A stretch of DNA of 63,859 nt, the filler included, from Chrysochromulina tobinii (Eukaryota), in assembly GCA_001275005.1 (NCBI GenBank). It is 9 parts of 9 records of this genome, joined end to end, with 100 filler letters (N's around TTAATTAATTAA, not from the genome) between each part and the next. Parts side by side here need not be neighbours in the genome. Positions count along the whole stretch, not along the records: positions 60,419 to 63,859 come from JWZX01000009.1; 8 more parts are not named here. One strand, 5' to 3'. Positions 1,786 through 63,701 of the stretch are shown piece after piece. Within the stretch, counting starts at the first letter, position 1, and each line of letters opens with the position of its first letter. Made by a program: the position numbers and the translations under genes. The notes under the pieces are model-generated. The model made no database searches. It was not told the DNA's origin and saw nothing but the letters and a program-made list of their open reading frames with translations.

Positions 1786-3348
1786 TCAAAGCCGACTGGT
1801 GCGCCCTTCCGCACCGATGAACGCCGAGCGCTCGCCGAGCGCTTCCAGTGCGCGCTGTGCGGCGCGTTCGCCAGTCTCCATCGCCCCATGCACGCAAGGG
1901 TTGATGCCCTCGTGGCACGCCTCCCCTGCAAAGAAGATGGCGCCGTGTGCGGCGAGGCCGAGGGCGGACCTGTGGGGAGACCAAGGCGCCGTAGTGAGCA
2001 CTTGCATGCAGGGCCAAGGCGCGTGCGCGGCGAGGCCGAGGGCGGACCGCTGGCCGGCGGCGCCGAGTGTCGGATGGCTGTAGGCGCCGTATGTGCGTGG
2101 GTGAGCATTCCAATCTTTGACGAGGAAGCCGTCGCACGCGCTGCTCGCTGGCCTCGGCTCCGCGGCCGTGCCAAACATGGCGTCGAGCTGCGTCAACATG
2201 AGGCGAGCGATCTCAGCATGTGGCACTCAGTGGCACTCAGTGGCACTCAGTGGCAAGCAATCAGTGGCAATCACCTGCGTCAACATGAGGCGAGCGATCT
2301 CAGCGTGTGGGAGCTTGGCCACGCGCTCAGCGCGCGCGCCCGCGACGAAGCCGACCATCGTGTACGGCGGCGGCGCGTCCTCGCGCATCAGCTCGGCGGC
2401 GGGCGAGAGCCACACCTCAGGCAAGAAGGCGTCGGCGCACACGGCGTCGTAAAAGTCGAGCGGCCAGAAGCGGCGCGTCAGCCGCACGATCACCTTGAGC
2501 GCCGAGCCCATCCGAAGCTTGCTGATGGCGGTCGAGTGCACTACCGGCAGCGGCGGCTCAAAGTGCACCTCCCCACGCTGCAAGGCGGCCAACGGAACGG
2601 TGACGATCACCGCGCGGGCCCGTACAGTCCGTCCGCTGCTGTCAACGAGCTCCACGCTGCACGCGTCGTCTGCGGCTGTTCCCCTCCCGGCATCCACGCA
2701 GACGCGCTCGACGGGCCAATTGGTCCGGAGAGGCAAGCCGCGTGCGAGCGTCTCCATGGCGTCCTGCAGGCAGGCTCCGCGCATCACGATGTACTTCTCG
2801 CCGTAGCTCCAGCTCCGCTGCTCGTGCATGACCTCATGCAAGCCCACATCACTCATGTCTGCGCCGTAATCGTTGCCAAAGATAGCATCGGCGAGGTCAA
2901 GCACGCGAGAGCTCAGGCCACAGCCCGCAAAATACTGCAGGAGCGACTGCTCGGGCACCGCGGCAGCGTCGAGCGCCTCGAGCTTCTCGAAGCTCTCGTG
3001 CATCAATGCAACATCGTCCAGGTTGTCTGCCGTCTCAGCCGGCAGCAGCGTGGCCTCCTTTCCAAAGAAATAGTAGTTGGGCCACTCAAGCTCAACAAGG
3101 CTGACGTTCGCACGGCCGACGAGCCCATCCCGCACCAGATCGAGCAGTCTGTTATTCTTCTCGCCATGGATGAACTCGGGGCCGAGCTCGAGGGGCCACT
3201 CTGCGAGAGTGGCATCGTGCAGCACGCGTCCGCCAACTTTGTCAGACGCCTCCAACACGACCACGCGCAGACCGCGCTCGTGCAACGCGCGCGCGGCCGA
3301 TAGGCCGCTTGCGCCGGCGCCGATCACCGCGACGTCGACATCCTCCAT
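1786..3348 (-). CDS. Flavin-containing amine oxidase; exons 3348-2275, 2187-2048, 1969-1786
   Basis: GAGASG FAD motif, GGRV, ELGPEFIHG and C-terminal FFAGEA...VHGAMETG. Removing GT-AG introns 2188-2274 and 1970-2047 restores the frame and removes duplicated peptides. Confidence 0.9.
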
Positions 3349-3476
3349 CGCGACACGTCACCTTCCAAATCGCAATGCCATGCGAACATACCTGAAACCC
3401 ACGGTCCACACTTTCACATGTTAGATGTTCACATATGTTCTTTCGTATTCTTTCGAGATCCACTTGCGAAGTTCCG

Positions 3477-4165
3477 ATGCGCACGACGAGGCTTGTCTCG
3501 CGCCAGGTGCTGCGCGTGGCCACCCGCGGCCTCGCGCTGCCGCCGCACACCGTTGTGGGCCTGCCGGCGCTGTCACCCACGATGACCCAGGGCAACATTG
3601 CTTCGTACGTCGCCAAGATCGGTGATCAGCTCACCACTGGTGACCGCCTTGCGGAGATCGAGACCGACAAGGCGACGGTTGACTTTGAGGCGACCGACGA
3701 CGGCTTTCTGGCGCAGATTCTGATTCCGGCGGGCACGTCCGATGTTCCCGTCGGCACGCCTATGCTCGTCCTTTGCACGAGTGCCGCCGATGTGCCGGCC
3801 TTTGCCAACTTCAAGGCGGATGGTGCGGCAGCAGCGCCCGCGAAGGCGGCGGCTCCCTCGCCCGCGAAGGCGGCGCCGGCGGCGGCGCCCACCCCGGCAC
3901 CCACCGTCGCTGCTGCGGCTCCTCCGCCGCCACGTGCCGCTGCCGCTGCGCCGACGTCCCTCGCCGGAGTGGCCCTTCCGGCCCTCGGCGGCAAAATTTA
4001 TTACAACCCGACAAACGGTGAGAGCTGCACCCCATGGATGCCGCGAGCGTGCGCACGCACTCACCCATCCGCCCGCGGTGCGCCCGGCCATGCTCTCCTG
4101 AATCCATTTCTGACGACGTGCGTATGACGTGTGTATTGCCGCCCATAGGCTGGTTTCGGGCATGA
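3477..4165 (+). CDS. Probably mitochondrial protein with a single PDH E2-type lipoyl domain and Ala/Pro linker; exons 3477-4017 and 4149-4165
   Basis: Arg-rich presequence, LPALSPTMTQGNI...EIETDKAT lipoylation motif, GTGAG...cccatAG intron 4018-4148, then GWFRA*. Confidence 0.75.
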
Positions 4166-25721: not shown

Positions 25722-27731
25722 GGCGCGGCGTTTGGCGACGCGTTCGTCAAGGCGGCGCAGCTGCCGGTAGCCGAGGGGGCGGCCGTGCCAGACAAGGAGG
25801 CGTGGCGGCTGCGCGTGCTCGCCACGCTCGTGCGCAAGGGGCTGCCTGCCGCGTGGCTGCCCACGGCGCTCGAGGCGGCCAAGGGCGTGGCGCGCGAGGC
25901 GGCGCACGAGGCGGGGAAGCTGGCTGCTGCCGACGCGCTCGTCGTGGGCAAGCGCGTGCTCGCCCTCGACGTGATCTGGAAGCAGGCCGTGGTCGCACGC
26001 GTGGAGGGCGACGCGGTGGACGTCAAGGTCCAGGGGTGGGACGAGAAGAAGGGCCTGCCGCGCACCAAGGCGCTCGTCGTCGCCTCCGACGGCGCGGGCG
26101 CGCTCCTCCGTCTCGCCGCAGGGGCGGGCGACGCGGCGCTCGTCGAGGCGCTGCTCGACGCGGGCGTCAACCCGCTCGTCGCCGACGAGCGCGCCAACAC
26201 GCCGCTGCACCGCGCCGCCGCCAGCGGGCACGTGGCCATCTGCCGTGCGCTCGTCGCGAAGGGCGCCGACAAGGAGGAGGAAAACACGCAGAACCAGTCC
26301 GTAGCCGGCGCAGCACAGAACGCCAAGCAGCACGCCGTCGTTCGCCTCTTTGAGCCGACGCTCTCGGACCGCGAGTTCACCGACGAGGCGTGCACGTGCA
26401 CGGAGCGGCTGCGCGCCGCCGCGACGGGGGACCTAGCGACCCTCGCACGCACGCAGGACGCGGGGAGGATCACGGCGCTCATGGTCGCGTCCCGCCGCAA
26501 GCAACTCGCGGCCGTCGTCAAGCTGCTGGCATCCTCAAACGCCTCCACGCTCAATGCGCAGAGCGCCGAGGGCTGCACCGCGCTCTACCTCGCCGCGGAG
26601 GAGGGCGCCGAGCCGATCGTGCAGCAGCTCCTCACTCAAGGGGCGGATGCGGCGCTCGCCGCTTCCGACGGTGGCACTCCACTCATGCGGGCGAGCCATT
26701 TTGGACACCAGCGCTGCCTTCACGTCCTGCTCGAGGCAAAGGCCGACCCAAATATGGCAACGCCCGACGGCGTGACCGCCTTGATGTGCGCTGCCCAAAC
26801 TGGCCACGAGCAGGTCGCTCTCGTCCTGCTCGAGGCGAAGGCGGACCCAAATAAGGCAACGCCCGACGGCGTGACCGCCTTGATCCTCGCTGCCCAAACT
26901 GGCCACGAGCAGGTTGCTCTCGTCCTGCTCGAGGCGAAGGCAGACCCAAATAAGGCAATGTCCGACGGCGTGACCGCCTTGATGTGGGCTGCCCAAAATG
27001 GCCACGAGCAGGTTGCTCTCGTCCTGCTCGAGGCGAAGGCGGACCCAAATAAGGCAACGCCCGACGGCGTGACCGCCTTGATATGGGCTGCCCAAAATGG
27101 CCACGACCATGTTGCTTTCGTCCTGCTCGAGGCGAAGGCGGACCCAAATAAGGCAACGCCCGACGGCGTGACCGCCTTGATCCTCGCTGCCCAAACTGGC
27201 CACGAGCAGGTCGCTCTCGTCCTGCTCGAGGCGAAGGCGGACCCAAATAAGACAATGTCCGACGGCGTGACCGCCTTGATGTGGGCTGCCCAAAATGGCC
27301 ACGACCATGTTGCTTTCGTCCTGCTCGAGGCGAAGGCGGACCCAAATAAGGCAATGTCCGACGGCGTGACCGCCTTGATATGGGCTGCCCAAAATGGCCA
27401 CGAGCAGGTTGCTCTTGTCCTGCTCGAGGCGAAGGCGGACCCAAACAAGGCAACGCCCGACGGCGTGACCGCCTTGATATGGGCTGCCCAAACTGGCCAC
27501 GAGCAGGTCGCTCTCGTCCTGCTCGAGGCGAAGGCGGACCCAAATAAGGCAATGTCCGACGGCGAGACCGCCTTGATGAAGGCTGCCCAAACTGGCCACG
27601 AGCAGGTCGCTCTCGTCCTGCTCGAGGCAGGAGCTGACCGGAACAAGGAGCTTTCTGGTCACAGCGGCTGGAATGCTCTGAAACTTGCGGAGATGGGTGG
27701 ACATTCTGCTGTCTGTGATTTACTGAGGTAA
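25722..27731 (+). CDS. Ankyrin-repeat protein, 5' truncated by contig edge
   Basis: TPLHRAA, TALYLAA, and nine near-identical 99-nt ankyrin units at 26733-27623. Confidence 0.9.
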   Translation, partial: GAAFGDAFVKAAQLPVAEGAAVPDKEAWRLRVLATLVRKGLPAAWLPTALEAAKGVAREAAHEAGKLAAADALVVGKRVLALDVIWKQAVVARVEGDAVDVKVQGWDEKKGLPRTKALVVASDGAGALLRLAAGAGDAALVEALLDAGVNPLVADERANTPLHRAAASGHVAICRALVAKGADKEEENTQNQSVAGAAQNAKQHAVVRLFEPTLSDREFTDEACTCTERLRAAATGDLATLARTQDAGRITALMVASRRKQLAAVVKLLASSNASTLNAQSAEGCTALYLAAEEGAEPIVQQLLTQGADAALAASDGGTPLMRASHFGHQRCLHVLLEAKADPNMATPDGVTALMCAAQTGHEQVALVLLEAKADPNKATPDGVTALILAAQTGHEQVALVLLEAKADPNKAMSDGVTALMWAAQNGHEQVALVLLEAKADPNKATPDGVTALIWAAQNGHDHVAFVLLEAKADPNKATPDGVTALILAAQTGHEQVALVLLEAKADPNKTMSDGVTALMWAAQNGHDHVAFVLLEAKADPNKAMSDGVTALIWAAQNGHEQVALVLLEAKADPNKATPDGVTALIWAAQTGHEQVALVLLEAKADPNKAMSDGETALMKAAQTGHEQVALVLLEAGADRNKELSGHSGWNALKLAEMGGHSAVCDLLR

Positions 27732-29298: not shown

Positions 29299-31370
29299 AT
29301 GGGCTGTGCCCCCACCAAGCAGCAGCCTGAGTCGCCGGATCCGTACGCCGAGCCGGATGCCGAGCCGGATGCCAAGCCGTCTGCAGACGATGCCCTCGAG
29401 ACACAATTGATGGGGAGCGTCGGCTCTGGCAAGGAAGACACCTTGATGGACAAGCAGACTTTCAATGACGTGGTCGTCGAGCTTGGGCTTCAAGGAATTG
29501 CGGCGGACATGAGTGAGGACGATCACAAAGAGCTCGAAGATTACATCAAGAGCCTAAAGGAACGCCAGACCTCGGTGACAGGCTTCAACCTTTGTCCGCA
29601 CCACGATGAAATTTTGCGAGGCCAGCCACGACCTGAGGAGAAGCCCGCCAAAGCAGCGAGCCGATCCCATATGCATCGCGAGCTGCTGCGCAAGCCGTCA
29701 ATAAAGCAGTCGGTTTTGGATGAGATGGACAACGCGACGGCGCGGATGCAGCCGAGCGCCCGCGAGACCAAGGACATGCTCTTCGCGCTTCACGCCTACA
29801 CGCGGGACGAGATCTACCGCGAGTTCAACCGCGACCACCGCGAGCTTCGGCCTGAGCCTTGGGCTGCTGTCTCGAACACGATGCGCTGCGCCGTGGAAAA
29901 TGCACGCTCGCCAGATGCCGGCGCGACTCTCTACCGCGGCGACACTCGCAACTTGTACACCCTCCGGAAGGGTCAGCTGGACTGCTTTTCTCAGTACACG
30001 AGCGCGAGCCTCAATCGAAGAGTCGCGAAAAGCTTCTCGGGGGACAAGTGGATCTTTGAGATCACGGGTGTCCCGCATACCCACTGCGCAATCATCAAGC
30101 ACGCGTCCAAATACCCGAATGAGGACGAGGTTCTAATTGCGCCCGGGTCCACCTTTTGCGTGGAGAGTGTCGACGAGTCAACCACTCCGAAGGTCGTGCG
30201 TTTGCGCTTTGGCGAGGATGGCAAGCAGGCCGACTGCGAGTGGTGCCTACTGGAGCGCGAATTCAGCACCTCGCGCCTGGTCACTGGTTCGTCAACGATC
30301 ACCGCGTTTGGTGTCGCGCTTGCTGGGAGGGCTCCAGGCAGGCCCCGCGCCGACGGCGACAGGCCCTTAATCGATGGACCATGTTTCAAATGCTTCGATA
30401 AGAACAGCCAGCTGGTCGATGGTACGGGAATGAAGCGACCACTCCTGGTTTCGGCTGCGGGTCGTGGCGCGGCAGGGGTAGCCATGGTAGACTTGCTGCT
30501 CGATCGGTTCGGGCTGGACGTAGATGTGGAGCGGCGCTTCACAGCATCCGACCACGCGGCACAGGCCCTGGAAGCTGCTCTGCGCTCCCCAAGCGGGACT
30601 CCGGGCCGTGCCGACTGCGTCGCCGCGATCATCGGCAACTGCGTACTGCGTCGACCTTCGCCATCCTCAACCTTCGAAGCCATCGTGTCACCGCTGCAGC
30701 TCGGCACCTTGCTGCGAGAGCCAGAACTCGAACGCATCGCTGAGCTAGGACAGAACTACCTCAGCCTTCCCTTGAGCAAGCCACGCGTGGTGTCCCTGTC
30801 AGCGGAGCAGCTCGTGCTCGCCATCCCATGGGCTGATGCAAAGGGCGAGACGCACGAGGCTGTGCCGTCGTGGCTGAAGGACGGGGCGTTGTGGTCAGAC
30901 GCAATTCGTTTTGAAGTCGACGCGTTCTCTGTGGAGTCCGGCGCGCCAGAAGTGGCCGGAAGCCAGGAGATCGATGCCCCATACCACTCGTGGCCCGGGG
31001 GCGCTTATGACATCAGCACAGAGCCATTGCCAGCAGGAGGAGTCCTGCTCAAGATGCCCAACAATCTGGCGCCGCTTGCGTCGAAGCTCTGCGTTGTGCG
31101 CGTTCGTATTGCCGAGGGTCAGTTCATCGCCGGTTCGGCGGCAAAGAGCTACTCGTGCAATCGGCAGTCACTGTGGTCGCTGCGCAGCAATGCGACCGAC
31201 TGGGAGGCTGCAGAGGCGGCTCGAAAGGAGGCAGAGGCCGCCGAGGTCGCAGCCAATGCGGCCAAGGCGGATGCGGACGCAAAGGCGGCAGAAGCGACTC
31301 TGTGGTTTCTGCGCAGCCATGCTAACGCAAAGGCGGCAGCGGAGGCGAAGGCGGCGGCTGAAGGGAAGGC
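29299..31370 (+). CDS. N-myristoylated R-S-E type (ARTC-like) ADP-ribosyltransferase domain protein; 3' truncated
   Basis: MGCAP N-terminus; ALHAYT...LYRG...YTSAS...SKYPNEDEVL motifs. Confidence 0.8.
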
Positions 31371-46091: not shown

Positions 46092-47903
46092 TCACCTGGC
46101 CACGTCACCAGGGTGGACCTGCTTCGCCCCAACGCTCTCTGCGCTCTCTCGAGCCTCTCGTTTGCAGATCCCTTGCTTGGCTCTCGGGGCCGTGCACCCG
46201 GCGATGCCTGTTCGGCACGTCACATACTGTGAGCAGTCATTGGCGGGTGCAGGGCTGTAAGAGCCTGGCCGGTTGTTCGTCCACCACGCCCATCCAGATT
46301 CGGGCAACGTTACGCGGAATGGCTTGGCTGTCTGCAGCCCCGAGACGCGGTTGTACACGAGGACGCACATGTCGTAATTACCGTTGGCAGCGCTTGAGGG
46401 GATCGTCAGAGCAAAGTGAAAGCTGCGAGACGGTGTAGAGCCGGCATGCATCGTGGTGCCTACCGTCACGACGTCACCGTAGTAGGAGACCTTGCCCCAA
46501 CCGGCGGGGAGATTGACGACATCAAGAGCAAATGTAGACTGTCCACAGCTGCCCTCGTCGACGTCCTCGGCCTGGCTGACCTTCCAGTAGCCCTTGCGCG
46601 TAGCCCCCGCCACGCTCGACACAGCCTTCAGCTCATCGATCAATGATTGGGTCTCGCAACTCGAGCAAGAGCCGTCCATCAACAGCTCATACTCCCCAAA
46701 GAGACCCGCGCCGATGCGTGGGTAGTCGCGGTAGCACGTCGTGTCGATGCAGCCATACTCGACCGTGAAGTTCACCGAGAGCCCGTCGGGACTCGGCCTC
46801 ACCTGGCTCAGTTTGATCCCAGTCGTCTGATCCACAAACGTCTTACCGGCATTAAGCGTCACCTTCACCATCTCTCCGTCTTGCCATGCTTCGCTGTCGG
46901 CGTATGCGCCGCCGCCGCACATCTGTCGCGTCGCATCGATGAGATAGCCCTCCTTATGCAGGAACAGCCCGGCTTGGTTGTATGCGACTTCCGGGTAGCT
47001 TCCGCTGTTCCACGTGTTACCGGCGCCAGAGCCGATGAATTCAACCCAAATGCCGTCTGCCTCGGTGCTTCCGGCAGGCGTGCGCACAAATGCCGCCCGC
47101 TTCAAGGAGCCCACCGAGGGCACCGCGGACATGGGTGCGTTCAGCGCGCCGATCGTGAACGTGCCCGCGCTCGTCACGCCTAAGACTTCATCGCTCCCAA
47201 ACCAGCCAAGATAGTAGCGTGCCCGTGCGCGGAATCCGGCGAGGAGCTTTGCGCCGCCCACGGTGTCGAACATGTCTCCATACTCGTACAACGTGCATTT
47301 GAGAGTATTGGAAGGCTCGGAGAGGCACTGATACGCATTGCTGTGCTGCTGGTATCGGAACATGTGTAGCATCTCGTGCATCATCCCGAGCTGCGACACT
47401 GGGAGAGGGCACGACCATCCGGAACATGAACTCTGCAGGACTACACTCGCCCTCACACTATTGAAGAGGAAGTTGGATGTGACGCTGATCCCGTTGATCG
47501 TTCTCACACACTGTTGCCCGATGATCCTGAAGTGGCGCACTCGTCGTTGACTACCATTATGATGATCGTGTCGTAGTTGGCAGGCACGAAGCTGCTGGTA
47601 GTCTGTATGTTGTTTGGAAGGTTGAACGATCGCGCACGAGCCATCATTTCTCTTCTCGGCGATGCCGAGCGGCGCGGCGAAACCATCAATATCGTATGAA
47701 GCACATCCAGATGATGCATTCGTGATAAAGGTTCGGAATGCGCCGCCGGCATAGAAGCTGGCAATCGCGCTGGCCGGCGGCGATGGCACGTTAGAAAACG
47801 TAAGCGCTAGCAGCGCGAACCTGTGGGACGTTCCGGACTTGGGAGCGGGGGGAAGTGCCCAGCTACGAGGGAGCGCTGGAATCGCCGGCTTGCACGCTGG
47901 CAT
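46092..47903 (-). CDS. Zinc metalloprotease, gametolysin/M11-like; both ends uncertain
   Basis: HEMLHMFRYQQH zinc motif followed by YEYGD..DTVG and YYLGW; Cys-rich beta C-terminal region. Confidence 0.7.
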   Translation of the reverse strand: MPACKPAIPALPRSWALPPAPKSGTSHRFALLALTFSNVPSPPASAIASFYAGGAFRTFITNASSGCASYDIDGFAAPLGIAEKRNDGSCAIVQPSKQHTDYQQLRACQLRHDHHNGSQRRVRHFRIIGQQCVRTINGISVTSNFLFNSVRASVVLQSSCSGWSCPLPVSQLGMMHEMLHMFRYQQHSNAYQCLSEPSNTLKCTLYEYGDMFDTVGGAKLLAGFRARARYYLGWFGSDEVLGVTSAGTFTIGALNAPMSAVPSVGSLKRAAFVRTPAGSTEADGIWVEFIGSGAGNTWNSGSYPEVAYNQAGLFLHKEGYLIDATRQMCGGGAYADSEAWQDGEMVKVTLNAGKTFVDQTTGIKLSQVRPSPDGLSVNFTVEYGCIDTTCYRDYPRIGAGLFGEYELLMDGSCSSCETQSLIDELKAVSSVAGATRKGYWKVSQAEDVDEGSCGQSTFALDVVNLPAGWGKVSYYGDVVTVGTTMHAGSTPSRSFHFALTIPSSAANGNYDMCVLVYNRVSGLQTAKPFRVTLPESGWAWWTNNRPGSYSPAPANDCSQYVTCRTGIAGCTAPRAKQGICKREARESAESVGAKQVHPGDVAR

Positions 47904-47986
47904 TGAAGGTGATGAGGCGTCTGGTATCCTATTCTGTGCCGGTACGCGTGTGGATGTGAGCGTCCAGGAGATCTTGTCGAGGTTGT

Positions 47987-48212
47987 TGCTCAACCCGGAC
48001 TTATTTCGTGACGGTATGCTCAACCCGGACTTATCAAGTCCGGGTTGAGCTAAGTCCGGGTTGAGCATATGGTTTGCGTGCTCAACCCGGACTTAGCTAG
48101 TGTGACCGTGAATTCACAGCTTCCTAAGTCCGGGTTGAGCATATGGTTTGCGTGCTCAACCCGGACTTAGCTAGTGTGACCGTGAATTCACAGTGGCTAA
48201 GTCCGGGTTGAG
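47987..48212. repeat. Array of eight 17-mers TGCTCAACCCGGACTTA in both orientations (foldback/MITE-like end)
   Basis: Forward copies at 47987, 48017, 48079, 48153; reverse copies at ~48035, 48051, 48125, 48198; 73-74 nt higher-order unit running into the contig end. Confidence 0.85.
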
Positions 48213-48314: not shown

Positions 48315-50000
48315 GGCCACCTCGCCGGCAAGAGTGGCCCGGAGCTCGGGCGGCTGCTGGGTGTCGTGAGCGACTTCCCCACCGAGGCGGAGCGGCAGGC
48401 AGCGACGGAGGAGCCCCTCTACACGCAAGACGCTCAGCACGACGCCACCGCACCGCGAGCGGCCGACGCACCCACACCGCCAGCGCCCGTGTGCTGGCTC
48501 TCGACACAGCTCGTCAACGAGGACGTCCTCGAGGACGCCCTCGCGGACGCCGACGTGCCGACGCTGCGCGCGCTCAAGGGCGTGAGCCTCGCGTGGCGCG
48601 CGCGGGCGCGGCGCGTCCTGTGCGCGCGGCTGTGCGCACGCGTCGGCCTGCCCCTCACGAGCAACCTCGTCGAGGTGACCGAGCTCAACCTCTCGGACAG
48701 CCGCACCGCCGGTCGCCTCTTCGCCGACGCGGTCGACGCGTCGCGCTGGCTGCCCAACCTGGCAAAGGTGACGGGGCTGGGCGGCTTCGAGGTGGACGTG
48801 GCCGCGCTGAGGAGTGTGGCGTCTTCGGATGGATCAGAAGAAGATGAAGATGGTCCGCAACCGTATCCGATGGCAGGGGTGCGCGCATGCATCCGCGGCG
48901 AGGGCGAGGCGCCGATGGAGGTGCTGCTTGCCGCGTGCGTGCTGCGCCGTGGCGAGGCGCGCGTGCCGCCAAGCGCGTTCTTCGAGGACAGGTCGATTAC
49001 GTCGATCGCGCTGCCCGCCGGCCTCACGAGCGTCGGTGAGTTCGCCTTCTGGGGCTGCTCCTCGTTGACGTCGATCGAGCTGCCCGCGGGCCTCACAAGC
49101 CTCGGTGAGGACGCCTTCTCTGGCTGCTCCTCGATGACGTCGATCGAGCTGCCCGCCGGCCTCACGAGCCTCGCTGAGCGCGCCTTCTATGGCTGCTCCT
49201 CGTTGACGTCGATCGAGCTGCCCGCCGGCCTCACGATCCTCGGTCGTGGCGCCTTCGTCGACTGCTCCTCGTTGACGTCGATCGAGCTGCCCGCCGGCCT
49301 CTCGAGCCTCGGTGAGTGCGCCTTCGCTGGCTGCTCCTCGTTGACGTCGATCAAGCTGCCCGCCGGCCTCACGAGCCTCGGTGAGGTCGCCTTCTGTGGC
49401 TGTTCCTCAATGACGTCAATCGCGCTGCCCACCGGCCTCACGAGCATCGATGAGGACGCCTTCTATTACTGCTCCTCGTTGACGTCAATCGAGCTGCCCG
49501 CCGGCCTCACAAGCATCGGTCATGGCGCCTTCCGTGACTGCTCCTCGTTGACGTCGATCAAGCTGCCCGCCGGCCTCACGAGCCTCGGTAAGGAGGCCTT
49601 CACTGGCTGCTCCTCGATAACGTCGATCGCGCTGCCCGCCGGCCTCACGAGCATTGGTGAGGGCGCCTTCAAGGACTGCTCCTCGTTGACGTCGATCGAG
49701 CTGCCCACCGGCCTCACGAGCCTCGGTAAGGAGGCCTTCTATGGCTGCTCCTCGATGTCGTCGATTGAGCTGCCCGCTGGCCTCACGAGCCTCGGTAGGT
49801 ACGCCTTCTATCGCTGCTCCTCGATGACGTCGATCGAGCTGCCCGCTGGCCTCACGAGCCTCGGTGAGGGCGCCTTCTCTGGCTGCTCCTCGTTGACGTC
49901 GATCGCGCTGCCCGACGGCTTCGATGAAAGCATTCTCAGGTTCGCCCAAGTGCCACCCAGCGCCATCCTTCGCTTTGGACCGGCAGTTGACGTCGATTGA
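48315..50000 (+). CDS. Skp1-F-box-BspA-type LRR protein, copy A (5' truncated, 13 LRRs)
   Basis: GKSGPELGRLLGVVSDF (Skp1 tail), EDVLEDAL...LKGVSLAWR (F-box-like), 69-nt repeats at 48993-49889. Confidence 0.85.
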   Translation, partial: GHLAGKSGPELGRLLGVVSDFPTEAERQAATEEPLYTQDAQHDATAPRAADAPTPPAPVCWLSTQLVNEDVLEDALADADVPTLRALKGVSLAWRARARRVLCARLCARVGLPLTSNLVEVTELNLSDSRTAGRLFADAVDASRWLPNLAKVTGLGGFEVDVAALRSVASSDGSEEDEDGPQPYPMAGVRACIRGEGEAPMEVLLAACVLRRGEARVPPSAFFEDRSITSIALPAGLTSVGEFAFWGCSSLTSIELPAGLTSLGEDAFSGCSSMTSIELPAGLTSLAERAFYGCSSLTSIELPAGLTILGRGAFVDCSSLTSIELPAGLSSLGECAFAGCSSLTSIKLPAGLTSLGEVAFCGCSSMTSIALPTGLTSIDEDAFYYCSSLTSIELPAGLTSIGHGAFRDCSSLTSIKLPAGLTSLGKEAFTGCSSITSIALPAGLTSIGEGAFKDCSSLTSIELPTGLTSLGKEAFYGCSSMSSIELPAGLTSLGRYAFYRCSSMTSIELPAGLTSLGEGAFSGCSSLTSIALPDGFDESILRFAQVPPSAILRFGPAVDVD

Positions 50001-57157: not shown

Positions 57158-58252
57158 GAAACCCGAAACCCAACATGAAACCCATTCCTGCTAGAACCCG
57201 AAACCCAAAACCCAATAGAATAAGTCTATGTTGAACTAAAAATACTAAAAATTACACAAGAAAAAGTAACTCGTGCTCCTCGTTGTGATTTACGGCCAAG
57301 ATGTTTTCGGTAAAAAAACACCGAGGGGAGCCGGAATCTATTTTAGCTCCGGCAAAGTTGCCGAGTCTGTCTTCTAATCAGTTTCGGCGAAAAATGCTGA
57401 AGCTCTCGCACACCCACAGATCTATCCTTCGGTAATCCTTCGGGTCGTCGTCGAGCGGCGTCATGCGGCGCTCGGAGGTTGCCTCCGAAGCCGCCGAGTA
57501 CCAGCGCGTCATCGACGGCCTCGCCGCAGCCGCATTAGCAGCCGCAGCTGAAGTGCCTGTCAGCGACAGCGACCACGGCGTCAAAGAGCTGTCGCTGCGC
57601 CTCGACCTTCTTCCAAGCATGTTGCGGTACACGATCTCGTCGCACACGGGCATCGAGCAGCACGTGCAGTACCAATCGCTCGAGCGGATGCTGCTCCAGG
57701 CGTTTGGGCTGGAATAGATCATGCCACCCGAGCGCTACCAAAACTTGGTGGAGTTTGAGGCGACGCTGCGTTCGCAGTTTGGTGACTCGATAATCCGCAT
57801 GCTCCATGGCCAAGGCTGGGCAGCTGACCCAACGTCCAGCGACAAGATGGAGCCGCACGCCAATGCTGCGGCCGTGGACCTCTCGAATCCCGTCGCGTTC
57901 ATTGCGAAGCACAACTCAGGCCTGCACTCATCGGGACACTGTTCACGCAGCTTGCCTGCTGCAGACTTCAAGGGAGGCGCATCGCTCCACAATTTGCTCA
58001 ACTTCTTCGAAGCGGCGCGTGCACGCGGCAAGGCTGTCACCTTCTCGCCGCCAGGCGTTTCTGGCTCAGTCGTCATCGCGTATTGTAGGTGCTATAGGTC
58101 GACCCGAAACCCGAAACCCAACGCAACTTGTAACCCGCACTTTGAACGAAACCCGAAACCCAACTTGTAACCCACACTTTCCGAAACCCGAAACCCGAAA
58201 CCCAACTTGAAACCCGCCACTGCCAAAACGTGAAACCCGGAACCCGAAACCC
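57158..58252. repeat. Two clusters of GAAACCC/AACCCG repeats (57158-57215, 58102-58252) flanking a stop-interrupted ORF
   Basis: Directly oriented motif clusters; ORFs 57463-57717 and 57721-58170 share a frame and are split by one TAG. Confidence 0.6.
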
Positions 58253-60244
58253 ATGCAGGGGGCTAAGAGAGAGGGAGGGGAGACGAGATGAGATGAGATG
58301 AGACGGGATGAGTGAAGATGGGAGGAGGTGGATGAGATGGGATGGATGAGTGGAGAGAGAGGAGAGGATTGTGCGGGATGAGGGGGGTTGGGGTGCTGCC
58401 GCCAATGGTAAGCGAGTGCGTTCCACCGCGGACTCATGCATTTGGGGATCGGGATGGATGTGCGGGCGGATGGATGTGCGAGGAGGTGGAGTGGGAGAGA
58501 TGGGTGCGAGCGTACACTTGTTGGGCATGGTGCCGGAGACAGTGCCGTCGGAGAGGAGGTAGGTGAGGGCCGGGCCTCCGTATGATGAGTCGCGGATCCG
58601 GCGAGCCTCGCCGATGGGGTCAGCGACCCTGACGGCGGCAGCCTCGGCGGCGATGATCGGTGCGGCGGTGAGGCAGCCGATGGTGGCGCCGGAGGCGGCG
58701 GTGGATCGGGCCTTCCCAGCGGTCGAAGCCTTGGGGATGACCGAGCGATCGGTCTCTTCGCGGGGCGCGGGCGCGGAAGTTGATTGGGGGGCTCTGCGAG
58801 CTTCGCGGGCGGCGTCGGCGGTGGAGCGCAGGCGGCGCCCAGCTTCGAGCCAGGAGGAAGGGGGAGAGAGCCACAATGGTAGCGTGGATCCCCCGGGTGC
58901 AGAGGCTTGCGCGGCGGCAAGGATGAGCGTCCAGTGCTCGGCGGCTTGCGCTGCCAGGCCGGCGGCGTCAGCGGCGAAGAAGGCGTCGGGAGGTGGCTTG
59001 CCGGCGGCGAGGGAGATGGCGGTGGTGAGATCGCAGTCAGGCTTGCCGAAGGAATCGGCGATGGCGTGAATGATCTCGACGGCGGAGAAGTGCTCGGAGC
59101 CGGCGACGATGAGCCCCTCGAATGGGCGAGGGGCTGGATGAGAAGTGCCCAAGGGAGCTCCGACGGGGATGGATGGCGGGGCGAATCCAAGGTGGGGGCC
59201 GAAGCTGGATGAGGGAGGTGGAAAGTGCGGCGGCGGCGGCACGAACCCATTGGTGCGCAGCGTGGCGCTGATGGAGGCGATGGCGGTGTCCATCTGGACG
59301 GTGGTGAGGCCGACCGCTCCGCCGAGCAGGCGGCGCGCCTCGATCTGGAAGGGATCGGGGGAGGGGATGGCGGCTGCGAGGGCGGCTGCGATGGCGGCGG
59401 CTACCGGGTCGGCGGCTGGGGGCGGGGCGGTCGCTGGATAGTGAGCAGCGATGGCCTCGGCAGCCTGGAGCTGCTGCCCTATGTGACGGCCGGCCTCGGA
59501 GAAGCCGACTGCCACGCCATGGGCTGCCAGATTAGCGTTGGCGGTGATGATGATGTGGTGATGTGCGGAGATGGCGTCGATGGCAGCGGCGAAGGCGGCG
59601 AAGAAGAGGGGCGCGGCGAGGCGGGCTGCGGAGAGGATGGGGCCGTCGGCTGGGTTGGCTGGGGGCTGGATGCATGCTAGGGCGACCGAAAGAGGCCGGG
59701 CGATGTTATTCCCGATGATTCCCCCGACTAAAGAAGCGGTATGGGCGCATGACGTGGGGAAGCCGGTAAGGACGAGGCCGAGCGAAGCGGTGCGCATCGC
59801 GCGATCTGGGCTTCCCACGGGTCCGAGGAAGGAGGCCTGATCGATGGGGGCGGCGTCCGCGGAGGCGATGGTAGGGATGCCGGCCTGGATGGGGATGGCC
59901 GGTGGTGCGCCGGGCGCGCCTGCCCATGGGATCCACGAGCCATTGATGAGCGCAACCGCTTGAGCGATTGTGATGGTCTGTGGTGCCCCGACTCCGATGG
60001 TGACTGAAAGCGAGTCAAAGGGGGTGCCGACGATGGGGGAGAAGGAGACGGGCGGTCCGGTCGGCATGCCGCCGACTGTCATCTGAATCTCTGCTGAACC
60101 CCCGGCAGTCCGGAGGATGCCGTACATAACGGTGTCGATGTTGAGCGTTGCGAAAGCCGTCTCAGATCTGTCAGAGGCTGAGGCGGGATCGCCATCTTCG
60201 CTGATCGAAATTTGCTTGGATCTCGACGTGTGTACTGATGCCAC
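58073..60244 (-). CDS. Ala/Pro-rich hypothetical protein, possibly a transposon ORF; ends uncertain
   Basis: 723-codon ORF with no motif I recognise, running into GATGA and GAAACCC repeats. Confidence 0.4.
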   Translation of the reverse strand: MASVHTSRSKQISISEDGDPASASDRSETAFATLNIDTVMYGILRTAGGSAEIQMTVGGMPTGPPVSFSPIVGTPFDSLSVTIGVGAPQTITIAQAVALINGSWIPWAGAPGAPPAIPIQAGIPTIASADAAPIDQASFLGPVGSPDRAMRTASLGLVLTGFPTSCAHTASLVGGIIGNNIARPLSVALACIQPPANPADGPILSAARLAAPLFFAAFAAAIDAISAHHHIIITANANLAAHGVAVGFSEAGRHIGQQLQAAEAIAAHYPATAPPPAADPVAAAIAAALAAAIPSPDPFQIEARRLLGGAVGLTTVQMDTAIASISATLRTNGFVPPPPHFPPPSSSFGPHLGFAPPSIPVGAPLGTSHPAPRPFEGLIVAGSEHFSAVEIIHAIADSFGKPDCDLTTAISLAAGKPPPDAFFAADAAGLAAQAAEHWTLILAAAQASAPGGSTLPLWLSPPSSWLEAGRRLRSTADAAREARRAPQSTSAPAPREETDRSVIPKASTAGKARSTAASGATIGCLTAAPIIAAEAAAVRVADPIGEARRIRDSSYGGPALTYLLSDGTVSGTMPNKCTLAPISPTPPPRTSIRPHIHPDPQMHESAVERTRLPLAAAPQPPSSRTILSSLSTHPSHLIHLLPSSLIPSHLISSRLPSLSLSPLHGFRVPGFTFWQWRVSSWVSGFGFRKVWVTSWVSGFVQSAGYKLRWVSGFGSTYSTYNTR

Positions 60245-60711
60245 GTCGGGGATGAGGTAGTAGAGTGGCCCTGGCGCACGCGCGATCGCCCCCTGCAGCT
60301 TGGTTCTGGACCCGACCGNNNNNNNNNNNNNNNNNNNNNNNNNNNNNNNNNNNNNNNNNNNNTTAATTAATTAANNNNNNNNNNNNNNNNNNNNNNNNNN
60401 NNNNNNNNNNNNNNNNNNGCTGGACCACGCGCTGTGCCCTGCAGTCACTGCTCCATCCTCCCACCAAACCACGTAGGCTGCACCGTCTGCTCTGATAAGA
60501 AATTCATCGCCGTCAAGTTCGTCGCCGTCCCGCCAGCGGCAAACAACGAAGTTGACGACTACGACTACGACCGCTGGTCGTCCGACGAGGATGAGCTTAG
60601 AGAGGGCGACGAGCTCGACGACCGAAACGGGCTTTTCGACGCAGCGCTCGCGGCAGAGGACGATCATCGACATAAGCAGCAGCCGCCGCTGCCGCTGCCG
60701 ATGATGAGCAC

Positions 60712-60712
<1 letters not shown>

Positions 60713-60784
<72 letters not shown>
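60713..60784. repeat. (CAG)24 microsatellite
   Basis: Uninterrupted 72-nt tract. Confidence 0.95.
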
Positions 60785-60786
<2 letters not shown>

Positions 60787-60843
60787 CAGCAGTGGCATCC
60801 ATGCAGCAGCCGCCGCCGCCGCAGCCAAGCAGTGGCGGCGCAC

Positions 60844-61318
60844 CATAGCCTGGGTGCACGGCGTCGACGCCGTTGTCGAGCGCGATCTGGACGATCTGCT
60901 TGATGTCGAGGTACGCTGAGATCGGCGATGCCGTCGCCTCCTTTTCGAGCTGGAACGACTGGTCAGAGCCCCACCGGTGCTGCGAGTATCTGTCCTCGTA
61001 GCCGTAGATCGCGACAGTGGCCATGTTGAGCTCGGTCGCGGCACGCATGATGCGCACGGCGATCTCGGCGCGATTGGCGGCCATCACCTTCTTGAAGGGC
61101 GGCCGCCCTCCTAGAGGATCGAGCGAGCCTCCCTCGAAAACTGGGTCAACGTCCGAAGCTTCGTTGACGTACATCCGTGCGTCCTCGACCCCCATGCGCA
61201 CCGCCGGCGTCGGAGCCGGACGGCTCACGGTGAGTGGCCGCCCGACGCCACGCAGCGAAGCGGCGAGTGCGGAGCCGCCGTCGCAGGCCGCTAGAAGCAG
61301 CACGACGCGCAGGGCCAT
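60844..61318 (-). CDS. PYC: Pyruvate carboxylase, plastid-targeted, exon 1
   Basis: Signal + transit peptide, then FKKVMAANRAEIAVRIMRAATEL...EDRYSQHR...AYLDI...HPGYG; GT donor at 60843. Confidence 0.88.
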
Positions 61319-61811
61319 CGCGACAGAGAAGGTGTCTCCCGAGTAGGATCGACGACGGGTCGGCTGCCGACGGTCACGTATTTCGCAGTCGAGTCCGCAA
61401 ATGACCCTCTTGGCGTGCTGGGGGGGGAGACTGAGGAAGGCATTTGTTGAGTTCGGCATAGCATGACTCGCCGCCTAAGCTAGAGACCGGTATGGTTTCT
61501 TTCTAACAAGTCGATTAAGCCATCGGACACCTTCTGTTTCCTGGTTATCTCCCACAGCGGGCCGCGGGGGGGCGTGGGTCCTCAGTGAGTCTCACTCACT
61601 CACTCACTCACTCACTTACTCACTCACTTCTATCACTCACTCTCACCTGACGTGAACGGAAAGACGAAGCCAAGAGCGCCGGCCGTGCCCCACTCCTTGA
61701 GGGTGGGCTCGTGGAGCACCGGTTGCTCTAACTCTCACCGCTTTAGCTCCTGAGTTTCCGAGTTTTGGTTGCAGTTCTTCTCTCTGCCTCGTTTCACGGT
61801 GAAAACAAACA

Positions 61812-63701
61812 TTGAAGCGACGTCGGGTCGGCGGCGGCGGAGACAGCGGCGACGGCGACGTCAACGGCGGCGACGGCGACGACGGCGTTGTGAGGGCGCG
61901 AAGCGCCGAGGGCGAGGAGGTTGTGTGGTCCCGTTCGGCCGCGGCGCGATCGGCGGCGCTCGCCAACTGGGTGAGCGACACGGGCGGCGCCGAGGGGGCG
62001 TTCGCCACTCTGGTGCCTGCGGCTGCGCTCCGCACGCTCTCGCGCGTCGCCGAGGGCGGTGCGGAGGATGGCGGGGCGCTAGAAGGGTGCTCGCTCGCGC
62101 AGCTCGCGCAGCTTTTGCATGGCGCGCACTTTCTCGACGTGGACGTCGAGCTTCTCCGCCTCCTCTCGCGTTCCCTGTGCACCGGCCACCTCGCCGGCAA
62201 GAGTGGCCCGGAGCTCGGGCGGCTGCTGGGTGTCGTGAGCGACTTCCCCACAGAGGCGGAGCGGCAGGCGGCGGCGGAGGAGCCGATTTACACGCAAGAC
62301 GCTCAGCACGACGCCACTGCACCGCGAGCGGCCAACGCACCCACACCGCCAGCCACCGTGTGCTGGTTCTCGGCGCAGCTCGTCAACGAGGACGCCCTCG
62401 AGGACGCCCTCGCGGACGCCGATGTGCCGACGCTGTGCGCGCTCAAGGGCGTGAGCCTCGCGTGGCGCGCGCGGGCGCGGCGCGTCCTGTGCGCGCGGCT
62501 GTGCGCACGCGTCGGCCTGCCGCTCACGAGCAACCTCGTCGAGGTGACCGAGCTCGACCTCTCGGGCAGCCGCGCCGCCGGTCGTCTCATCGCCGACGCG
62601 GCCGACGCATCGCGCGGGCTGCCCAGCCTGGCAAAGGTGACGGGGTTGGGCGGCTTCGAGGTGGACGTGGCCGCGTTGAGGATTGTGGCGTCTTCGGGTG
62701 ACTACTCGTACCCGATGGCGGGAGTGCGCGCGTGCATCCGCGGCGAGGGCGAGGCGCCGATGGAGGTGCTGCTCGCCGCATGCGCGCTGCGCCACGGCGA
62801 GGCGCGCGTGCCGGCGCACGCGTTCCGCGGGGACACGTCGATGACATCGATCGCGCTGCCCGCCGGCCTCACGAGCATCGGTGAGGGCGCCTTCTATGGC
62901 TGCTCCTCAATGACGTCGATCGCGCTGCCCGCCGGCCTCATGAGCATCGCTGAGTTCGCCTTCTCTGGCTGCTCCTCGTTGACATCGATCGAGCTGTCCG
63001 CTGGCCTCACGAGCATCGGTGATAATGCCTTCGATGGCTGCTCCTCGTTGACATCGATCGAGCTGCCCGCCGGCCTCACGAGCATCGGTAGGAGCACCTT
63101 TTACAACTGCTCCTCGATGACGTCGATTGCGCTGCCCGCCGGCCTCACGAGCTTAGGTGAGGCGGCCTTCTGGGGCTGCTCCTTGATGACGTCGATCGAG
63201 CTGCCTGCAGGCCTAACGAGCCTCGGTGGGTACGCCTTCTATGGCTGCTCCGCGATGACGTCGATCGAGCTGCCTGCAGGCCTCACGAGCATCGGTGGGT
63301 GCGCCTTCTGGGGCTGCTCCTGGATGACGTCGATCGCGCTGCCCGCCGGCCTCACAAGCATCGGTTGGAAGGCCTTCTCAGGCTGCTCCTCGATGACGTC
63401 GATCGCGCTGCCCGCCAGCCTCACGAGCATTGGTGGCGCTGCCTTCAATGGCTGCTCCTCGTTGACGTCGATCGCGCTGCCCGCCGGCCTCACGAGCATC
63501 GGTGGGTGCGCCTTTTACAACTGCTCCTCATTGGCGTCGATCAAGCTGCCCGCCGGCCTCACGAGCCTCGGTGATGACGCCTTCAAGGGCTGCTCCTCGT
63601 TGACGTCGATCGAGCTGCCTGCGAGCTTCGATGACAGCACTCTGAGGTCCGCCGGAGTGCCTCCCAGCGCCATCCTTCGCTTTGACTTCGCTTTGCACTG
63701 A
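61812..63701 (+). CDS. Skp1-F-box-BspA-type LRR protein, copy B (11 LRRs; start codon unclear)
   Basis: LAQLLHGAHFLDV..LL...AGKSGPELGRLLGVVSDFPTEAE (Skp1), F-box-like segment, 69-nt repeats at 62838-63596. Confidence 0.85.
   Translation: MKRRRVGGGGDSGDGDVNGGDGDDGVVRARSAEGEEVVWSRSAAARSAALANWVSDTGGAEGAFATLVPAAALRTLSRVAEGGAEDGGALEGCSLAQLAQLLHGAHFLDVDVELLRLLSRSLCTGHLAGKSGPELGRLLGVVSDFPTEAERQAAAEEPIYTQDAQHDATAPRAANAPTPPATVCWFSAQLVNEDALEDALADADVPTLCALKGVSLAWRARARRVLCARLCARVGLPLTSNLVEVTELDLSGSRAAGRLIADAADASRGLPSLAKVTGLGGFEVDVAALRIVASSGDYSYPMAGVRACIRGEGEAPMEVLLAACALRHGEARVPAHAFRGDTSMTSIALPAGLTSIGEGAFYGCSSMTSIALPAGLMSIAEFAFSGCSSLTSIELSAGLTSIGDNAFDGCSSLTSIELPAGLTSIGRSTFYNCSSMTSIALPAGLTSLGEAAFWGCSLMTSIELPAGLTSLGGYAFYGCSAMTSIELPAGLTSIGGCAFWGCSWMTSIALPAGLTSIGWKAFSGCSSMTSIALPASLTSIGGAAFNGCSSLTSIALPAGLTSIGGCAFYNCSSLASIKLPAGLTSLGDDAFKGCSSLTSIELPASFDDSTLRSAGVPPSAILRFDFALH

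Follow-up and report, generated by a model that had tools for sequence, protein, structure and literature searches.

Fusion of Skp1, F-box and leucine-rich repeats in a Chrysochromulina protein family: candidate pre-assembled Cul1 substrate receptors

Skp1 and F-box proteins are separate subunits in SCF, and Skp1 is a free-standing subunit of about 160 amino acids that exchanges F-box partners. The F-box families of Caenorhabditis also use free Skp1-type adaptors. In SCF receptors of the FBXL type (Skp1 with Skp2, FBXL2 or TIR1), a Skp1 fold with C-terminal helices, an F-box and an LRR domain act together and dock on the N-terminal part of Cul1. The BTB adaptors of Cul3, such as SPOP and KLHL/KEAP1, carry adaptor and receptor in one polypeptide, as described in the available portion of PMC4403949. 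Positively selected F-box families of Caenorhabditis are large, and their variation is concentrated in the substrate-binding domain (PMC8120010, available portion). Large expansions are also known for the BspA-like LRR families, which are built of LRR_5 repeats; in Trichomonas vaginalis, 911 BspA-like sequences have been counted, 193 of them with a transmembrane domain, and the term F-box does not occur in the main text of that paper, as far as the available part of it goes (PMC2843621).

The window, that is, the whole stretch of DNA analysed here, comprises 63,859 nucleotides of Chrysochromulina tobinii sequence (GCA_001275005.1). It contains an open frame on a eukaryotic scaffold of about 63% GC, in which Skp1 is not free-standing and shares the frame with an F-box and LRRs. 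The features of this gene and of a second family member are as follows.

61812–63701 (+): single-exon open frame of 629 codons, with Skp1-like part, linker, F-box, third domain and BspA LRRs
61812–61814 (+): TTG in place of the ATG of the paralogues; null allele or near-cognate start possible
61815–61886 (+): N-terminal tail, with a basic KRRR stretch followed by a Gly/Asp-rich part of variable length
61887–62291 (+): divergent full-length Skp1 (residues 26–160), with a POZ fold and C-terminal F-box-binding helices
62292–62369 (+): Pro/Ala-rich linker (residues 161–186), lower in pLDDT; family median about 20 residues
62370–62507 (+): F-box (residues 187–232), three helices
62508–62819 (+): conserved third domain, alpha/beta (residues 233–336), about 100 amino acids between F-box and LRRs, confidently modelled
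62820–63701 (+): BspA-type (LRR_5) repeats, about 12 of 23 amino acids, four positions in each being hypervariable; a C-terminal cap follows
48315–50000 (+): second member of the family, at the L056 locus; a scaffold gap has removed its 5' end

The initial annotation had read this gene as one polypeptide with Skp1, F-box and BspA-type LRRs, and the single frame, the profiles and the predicted folds bear out this reading; the LRRs are recognised by Pfam as LRR_5 with an E value of 8.6e-93. The TTG start and the domain that separates the F-box from the LRRs had not been described. The parts and the predicted Cul1 docking are those of the FBXL receptors. Unlike in the latter, however, Skp1 and F-box form one chain, the LRRs are of the BspA/LRR_5 type, a domain of about 100 amino acids is inserted, and there are dozens of paralogues, each with its own Skp1. 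The one-chain layout and the POZ fold are shared with the BTB adaptors, whereas the sequence is that of Skp1 and F-box, Cul1 is the predicted partner, and no BACK, Kelch or MATH domain is seen. The size of the family and its localized variation resemble the Caenorhabditis F-box families, but here the adaptor belongs to the same chain and the variation sits in a regular 23-residue repeat. The repeat type and its expansion are those of the BspA-like families, but no signal or transmembrane stretch is seen in a simple scan. No natural Skp1–F-box fusion was found in openly available main texts (subscription journals and supplements lay outside the coverage); the fusions in 10.1101/2023.07.24.550360, PMC4675558 and PMC2294136 involve EloB or tags in the available portions of these papers. 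The fused Skp1–F-box–LRR protein is a real variant of the SCF receptor and apparently an undescribed one.

The protein is too divergent for a single-sequence Pfam test of Skp1. Such a search finds LRR_5, but with the threshold relaxed to E ≤ 10 it still gives no match to Skp1, Skp1_POZ or F-box; the HMM search that had been proposed is therefore positive for LRR_5 at this level and positive for Skp1 and F-box only through family profiles and homologues. Likewise, a phmmer search of the N-terminal 330 residues against the PDB returns just three noise matches. When the N-terminal 314 residues are combined with seven homologues into a profile, the top 30 of 37 PDB rows are Skp1 (best E 1.2e-8). 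A 138-sequence family profile yields Skp1 in all of rows 1–24 (best E 3.6e-17), and its alignment covers the Skp1 chain end to end, first strand and last helix included. BTB proteins are absent among the best 60 of the 155 PDB rows of the latter profile. The motif on which the Skp1 reading originally relied corresponds to residues 101–150, and the profiles extend it to all of Skp1, so that the N-terminal POZ part, which had been omitted, is covered as well. Two relatives exceed the Pfam cut-offs themselves, namely P0142 (Skp1_POZ, 35.1) and P0126 (Skp1, 25.3).

Structure prediction is consistent with the profiles. The AlphaFold2 model of residues 23–336 forms one compact unit (pLDDT 89.9, pTM 0.82), for which Foldseek returns Skp1-containing entries (best E 7.2e-4). 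VIA ranks Skp1 first (1ldk_D, Z 12.3, rmsd 2.3, 110 residues aligned), so that the N-terminus models as Skp1, and a match to 9o4k_D (Z 10.1, rmsd 4.3, 134 residues aligned) extends to model position 140. BTB domains follow closely, within 2 Z of Skp1 (Z up to 10.6). Because BTB domains score near Skp1 by fold, the assignment to Skp1 rests on the sequence and on the C-terminal helices. This similarity of fold raises the alternative that the protein is a BTB-type adaptor for Cul3 or another cullin, in which BTB plus BACK/3-box-like helices merely resemble Skp1 plus F-box; one-chain adaptor-receptors are indeed the rule for Cul3 (PMC4403949, available portion). However, the profiles match Skp1 with no BTB among the best rows, Skp1-less relatives pass the F-box cut-offs of Pfam, and the complex prediction with Cul1 described below passed. 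A BTB-type adaptor is hence very unlikely, and the reading of the N-terminal part as Skp1 is preferred.

The F-box-like segment noted initially is supported by the Pfam matches of homologues and by the predicted fold. In a Pfam scan of 138 aligned family members at E ≤ 0.1, 38 members match Skp1, 7 Skp1_POZ, 14 F-box-like and 8 F-box. P0149 carries both parts in one chain (Skp1 at 20.4 bits, cut-off 22.3; F-box-like at 24.3 bits, at the cut-off), and P0153 has Skp1 and F-box-like both slightly below the cut-off together with ankyrin repeats. An F-box cut-off is passed by five relatives that do not have Skp1 (P0180, P0188, P0216, P0225 and P0242). A model of residues 184–337 (pLDDT 85.7) has F-box proteins at VIA ranks 1–4 and, by entry title, in 18 of 50 rows, with modest Z scores of 4–6.5 for the top rows; the F-box of Skp2 superposes on it with an rmsd of 1.8 over 41 of 41 residues. 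Foldseek gives no match for this model at E ≤ 0.001. The F-box residues are placed beside Skp1 on Cul1 in the complex model, and the compact model of residues 23–336 is a single unit, so that the F-box is predicted to pack in cis on its own Skp1.

Direct docking on cullin had been proposed from the domain content. To predict the complex, residues 23–336 were paired with residues 1–206 of Cul1 of Chrysochromulina parva (P0332), alignments being unused. The complex scores 0.79, as against 0.01 for the best of three controls; contacts agree between runs to at least 83%, and the pLDDT of the partner is at least 72. In a microbial calibration, 51 of 78 solved pairs clear the pass mark, as do 2 of 108 mismatched ones; in a eukaryotic calibration, the mark is cleared by 71 of 105 solved pairs and by 2 of 126 unrelated ones. 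Residues 36–62 and 111–129 of Cul1 are predicted to contact residues 48–67, F107, D109, F-box residues 191–195, and 237–239, and F107 and D109 align to the AANYLD motif of Skp1. These surfaces are, we assume, the canonical ones of SCF. A cullin-binding surface is thus predicted with Cul1 of the same genus, and the docking proposal is supported as a prediction, which may reflect memory of solved SCF complexes. Because the structure of SCF has already been solved, the pass shows likeness rather than binding.

The Cul1-facing side also bears on a second alternative, in which the fused Skp1–F-box is a decoy or regulator of Cul1, or a cullin-independent scaffold, with no active ligase and with the LRRs sensing a ligand. 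Sequence identity between the Skp1 part and the Skp1 chains of solved structures is just about 20%, and the motif facing Cul1 is altered: the Asn of AANYLD that precedes the aromatic residue, presumably a Cul1 contact, is His in this protein and is kept in 14 of 58 representatives with full Skp1. Moreover, structure entries place Skp1 in non-SCF complexes such as CBF3. On the other hand, the predicted Cul1 interface is kept and is conserved among paralogues, with non-consensus residues in 13 of 873 alignment cells at the interface vs 175 of 5692 elsewhere, and dozens of different LRR surfaces would be superfluous for a decoy. A decoy or scaffold is therefore considered unlikely, and the substrate-receptor reading is retained.

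The remaining parts of the protein are consistent with this organization. Residues 233–336, searched as part of the 184–337 model, have no fold match in Foldseek or VIA; this domain, to which no family is assigned, probably serves the repeat array as a connector or N-cap. A simple hydropathy scan finds neither a hydrophobic N-terminus nor a transmembrane stretch; the maximum 19-residue hydropathy, 1.34, lies within the LRRs, and the N-terminus is charged and Gly-rich. The absence of such stretches fits an intracellular protein, as had been suggested. The KRRR stretch near the N-terminus is a possible nuclear-localisation signal, and a methionine followed by a basic motif is present within the first 60 residues in 65 of 83 close homologues.

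The copy at 61812–63701 begins with TTG, at a position where 31 of 32 paralogous loci have ATG. Sequencing error was considered and rejected as the cause, as TTG is repeated in independent assemblies (loci L001–L004) and in a contig from a DNA run that is identical over 61730–61882. The first in-frame ATG lies at 62715 (residue 302), and the next two ATGs ahead of the F-box within the gene body are out of frame. An upstream exon is unsupported as well: the sole (C/T)AG in 61801–61960, at 61845, shows no joint in RNA-library or DNA contigs. A 799-nt paralogue contig from an RNA library, which may contain DNA, spans 61889–62681 free of introns, with 33 differences and 3 gaps; the RNA contigs cover paralogues, and none matches this copy exactly. 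No decay was seen in residues 37–290, where there is one private amino-acid change. The copy is thus either a young null allele or a user of a near-cognate start. It may be silent given the TTG, and there is about an even chance that this allele yields no full-length protein. Because this copy is without an ATG, the receptor claim is stronger for the family as a whole than for the allele at hand. Two short repeats of high copy number (61401–61517 and 61674–61797) and a CTCA microsatellite (61581–61642) immediately precede the TTG. About 350 bases from the gene, in divergent orientation, is an N-terminal fragment of biotin carboxylase (60371–61459, −; E 3.8e-23), after which come a CAG repeat and a gap.

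The second copy that had been noted at 48315–50000 is real and is truncated at its 5' end by the scaffold gap. It is 73% identical to the 61812–63701 protein over 554 amino-acid columns. Its sequence is 99.6% identical to L056 over 1.6 kb, with a further 5.8 kb of common downstream sequence, and the L056 counterpart has an ATG-started frame of 731 amino acids.

Other open frames of the window are recorded here as separate observations. At 26481–27731 (+), adjoining a scaffold gap, an ankyrin-repeat protein has about 11 near-identical repeats that differ at few positions, and is possibly another variable repeat receptor. At 29299–31370 (+), a frame that is cut by a gap has an MG-C N-terminus and an ART-type ADP-ribosyltransferase domain (PF01129, E 1.5e-14). 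Two long frames of 658 and 684 amino acids (46092–48068, −, and 58073–60127, −) match no Pfam family.

Close paralogues are numerous. The best 80 of 115 metagenome matches give 75 loci, which can be sorted by 5' flank into 40 groups and by coding sequence into 39; related assemblies are pooled in these counts, which are minimum values. The count of family members called for at the outset therefore stands at about 40 close paralogous loci as a lower bound, with 718 wider matches at E ≤ 0.001. Summed contig depth is about 2,200–3,700 over most of the Skp1 part vs 43–47 on the unique flank, and is only a hint as to the copy count. Pairwise pN/pS, counted in 37 sequences regardless of phylogeny and recombination, is 0.32 for Skp1 (residues 26–157), 0.26 for its C-terminal half and 0.15 for the F-box, which points to purifying selection on Skp1 and F-box.

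The LRRs behave differently at a few defined positions. Among 391 repeats, positions 18, 19, 22 and 23 of the 23-residue repeat are hypervariable (1.9–3.7 bits), whereas the usual LRR strand positions barely vary. At the hypervariable codons pN is 0.535 vs a pS of 0.217, and at the framework codons pN is 0.087 vs a pS of 0.181. All 20 of 20 split halves select the same four columns, and at these codons pN remains 0.46 even in 41 repeat pairs with identical framework DNA. From repeat geometry, the four positions would form one surface stripe, and the variable LRR surfaces are likely to be a recognition repertoire. The repeat code is distinct for each locus and mostly identical across assemblies; some assemblies differ in repeat number, and such differences, which are the main ones seen, may be assembly artefacts. 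Rapid diversification within a culture is not seen: when a locus is assembled repeatedly, most of its assemblies have the same LRR code. Locus L041 has the 5' flank of L045 together with the LRR code of L038, through either exchange between paralogues or chimeric assembly.

Many of the paralogous loci look decayed. The usual C-terminal cap is found in only 22 of 39 loci, some of which are cut by contig ends, and an in-frame start is absent from four. Homology among 32 loci (L002–L074) begins exactly at the start codon (61811/61812): each base from the ATG onwards carries about 2 bits of conservation, whereas the value is close to zero ahead of −3. This sharp boundary may stem from gene conversion confined to coding sequence, or from a copying process whose 5' end is fixed. 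Upstream flanks are repetitive in 20 of 32 loci vs 12 of 26 controls, which is not clearly different.

Such features would be expected if a BspA subfamily had been amplified by drift or copying, its diversity being repeat shuffling and most copies being functionless. The exact onset of homology at the start codon, the broken copies, the TTG of the 61812–63701 copy and the pairing in L041 of one 5' flank with the LRR array of another locus, where assembly may be chimeric, all fit this explanation. However, purifying selection acts on the docking module, the hypervariable codons have a pN above the pS of those very codons, and the architecture is kept across dozens of clusters at 50% identity. 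At the loci, neither a common 3' end nor a terminal motif, poly(A) or target duplication could be seen, so that a mobile-element origin is also unsupported. Amplification of functionless copies is accordingly very unlikely, and a repertoire of receptors remains the preferred explanation.

A search for the wider family among 1.84 billion representatives gave 718 matches at E ≤ 0.001, of which 114 reach E ≤ 1e-30. Modules were counted, with HMMs built from the family itself, in the 150 of these 718 representatives (50% identity) that were listed. The Skp1-like part stands ahead of the F-box-like part in 84 of the 150, and is nearly whole in 58 of these; 18 have Skp1 only, and 45, many of them fragments, have the F-box without Skp1. 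Because 84 of 150 representatives at 50% identity carry both parts, the module is regarded as old. The C-terminal parts that follow the module vary and comprise BspA LRR_5, RI-like LRR_6, ankyrin and weak HEAT repeats; this recurrence with different binding domains counts in favour of the substrate-receptor reading.

The named members come from C. tobinii, C. parva and one MMETSP transcript only, and the named close homologues, from C. tobinii, are annotated as 'surface antigen-like protein'. A quick tree (87 rows, P0102 left out, midpoint root), used as a hint, places seven F-box proteins that do not have Skp1, six of them with BspA repeats, inside the clade of the 61812 gene (SH-aLRT 99). 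It hints at secondary loss of Skp1 in these proteins, which may, however, be truncated gene models. The ESM Atlas has no usable match for the 61812–63701 protein; for P0115 it gives a 0.77 match to a haptophyte cluster, which is a lead only. No relatives in viral contigs were confirmed among 18 pattern matches. Separately, giant-virus contigs encode full-length cullins (L076, 3336–5444, −; L079, 1641–3689, +; L078; L080). The L076 and L079 cullins resemble Cul1, the N-terminal part of the L079 protein being 40–46% identical to cellular Cul1.

Taken as a whole, the fused Skp1–F-box–LRR family of the haptophyte Chrysochromulina probably comprises pre-assembled substrate receptors of Cul1. Skp1 and the first F-box helix would dock on Cul1 residues 36–62 and 111–129, with the F-box site of the fused Skp1 filled in cis. 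Substrates would bind the stripe of repeat positions 18, 19, 22 and 23, and the proteins bound by the LRRs would be ubiquitylated by Cul1–Rbx1. Because of the KRRR start, ubiquitylation is possibly nuclear. CAND1 exchanges adaptor-receptor units on Cul1 (PMC4403949, available portion), and a fused unit would therefore fit the cycle.

The chance that the targets are foreign proteins, viral or parasitic, is put slightly below even. In Gephyrocapsa huxleyi, two BspA-LRR genes are up-regulated in virus-recovered cells, as stated in the available part of PMC12489294, which is linked to the fused family only by repeat type. An immune role is suggested by this induction and by the variability of the LRRs. 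A broader and more doubtful proposal is that haptophytes have an intracellular immune repertoire, in which one-piece SCF receptors with positively selected, shuffled LRRs mark proteins of giant viruses or parasites for destruction, and in which the cis-filled F-box site excludes viral F-box competitors.

The architecture corrects the database label 'surface antigen-like protein', and the design of one-chain degraders is offered a natural scaffold in the fused Skp1–F-box receptor. If the Skp1–F-box fusion is indeed natural, old and expanded, it would mean that Cul1 ligases can use the one-chain layout of Cul3, and it would put to the test the reasons for which the adaptor of SCF is normally shared. 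With four variable positions per 23-residue repeat, antiviral recognition in bloom-forming algae becomes directly testable.
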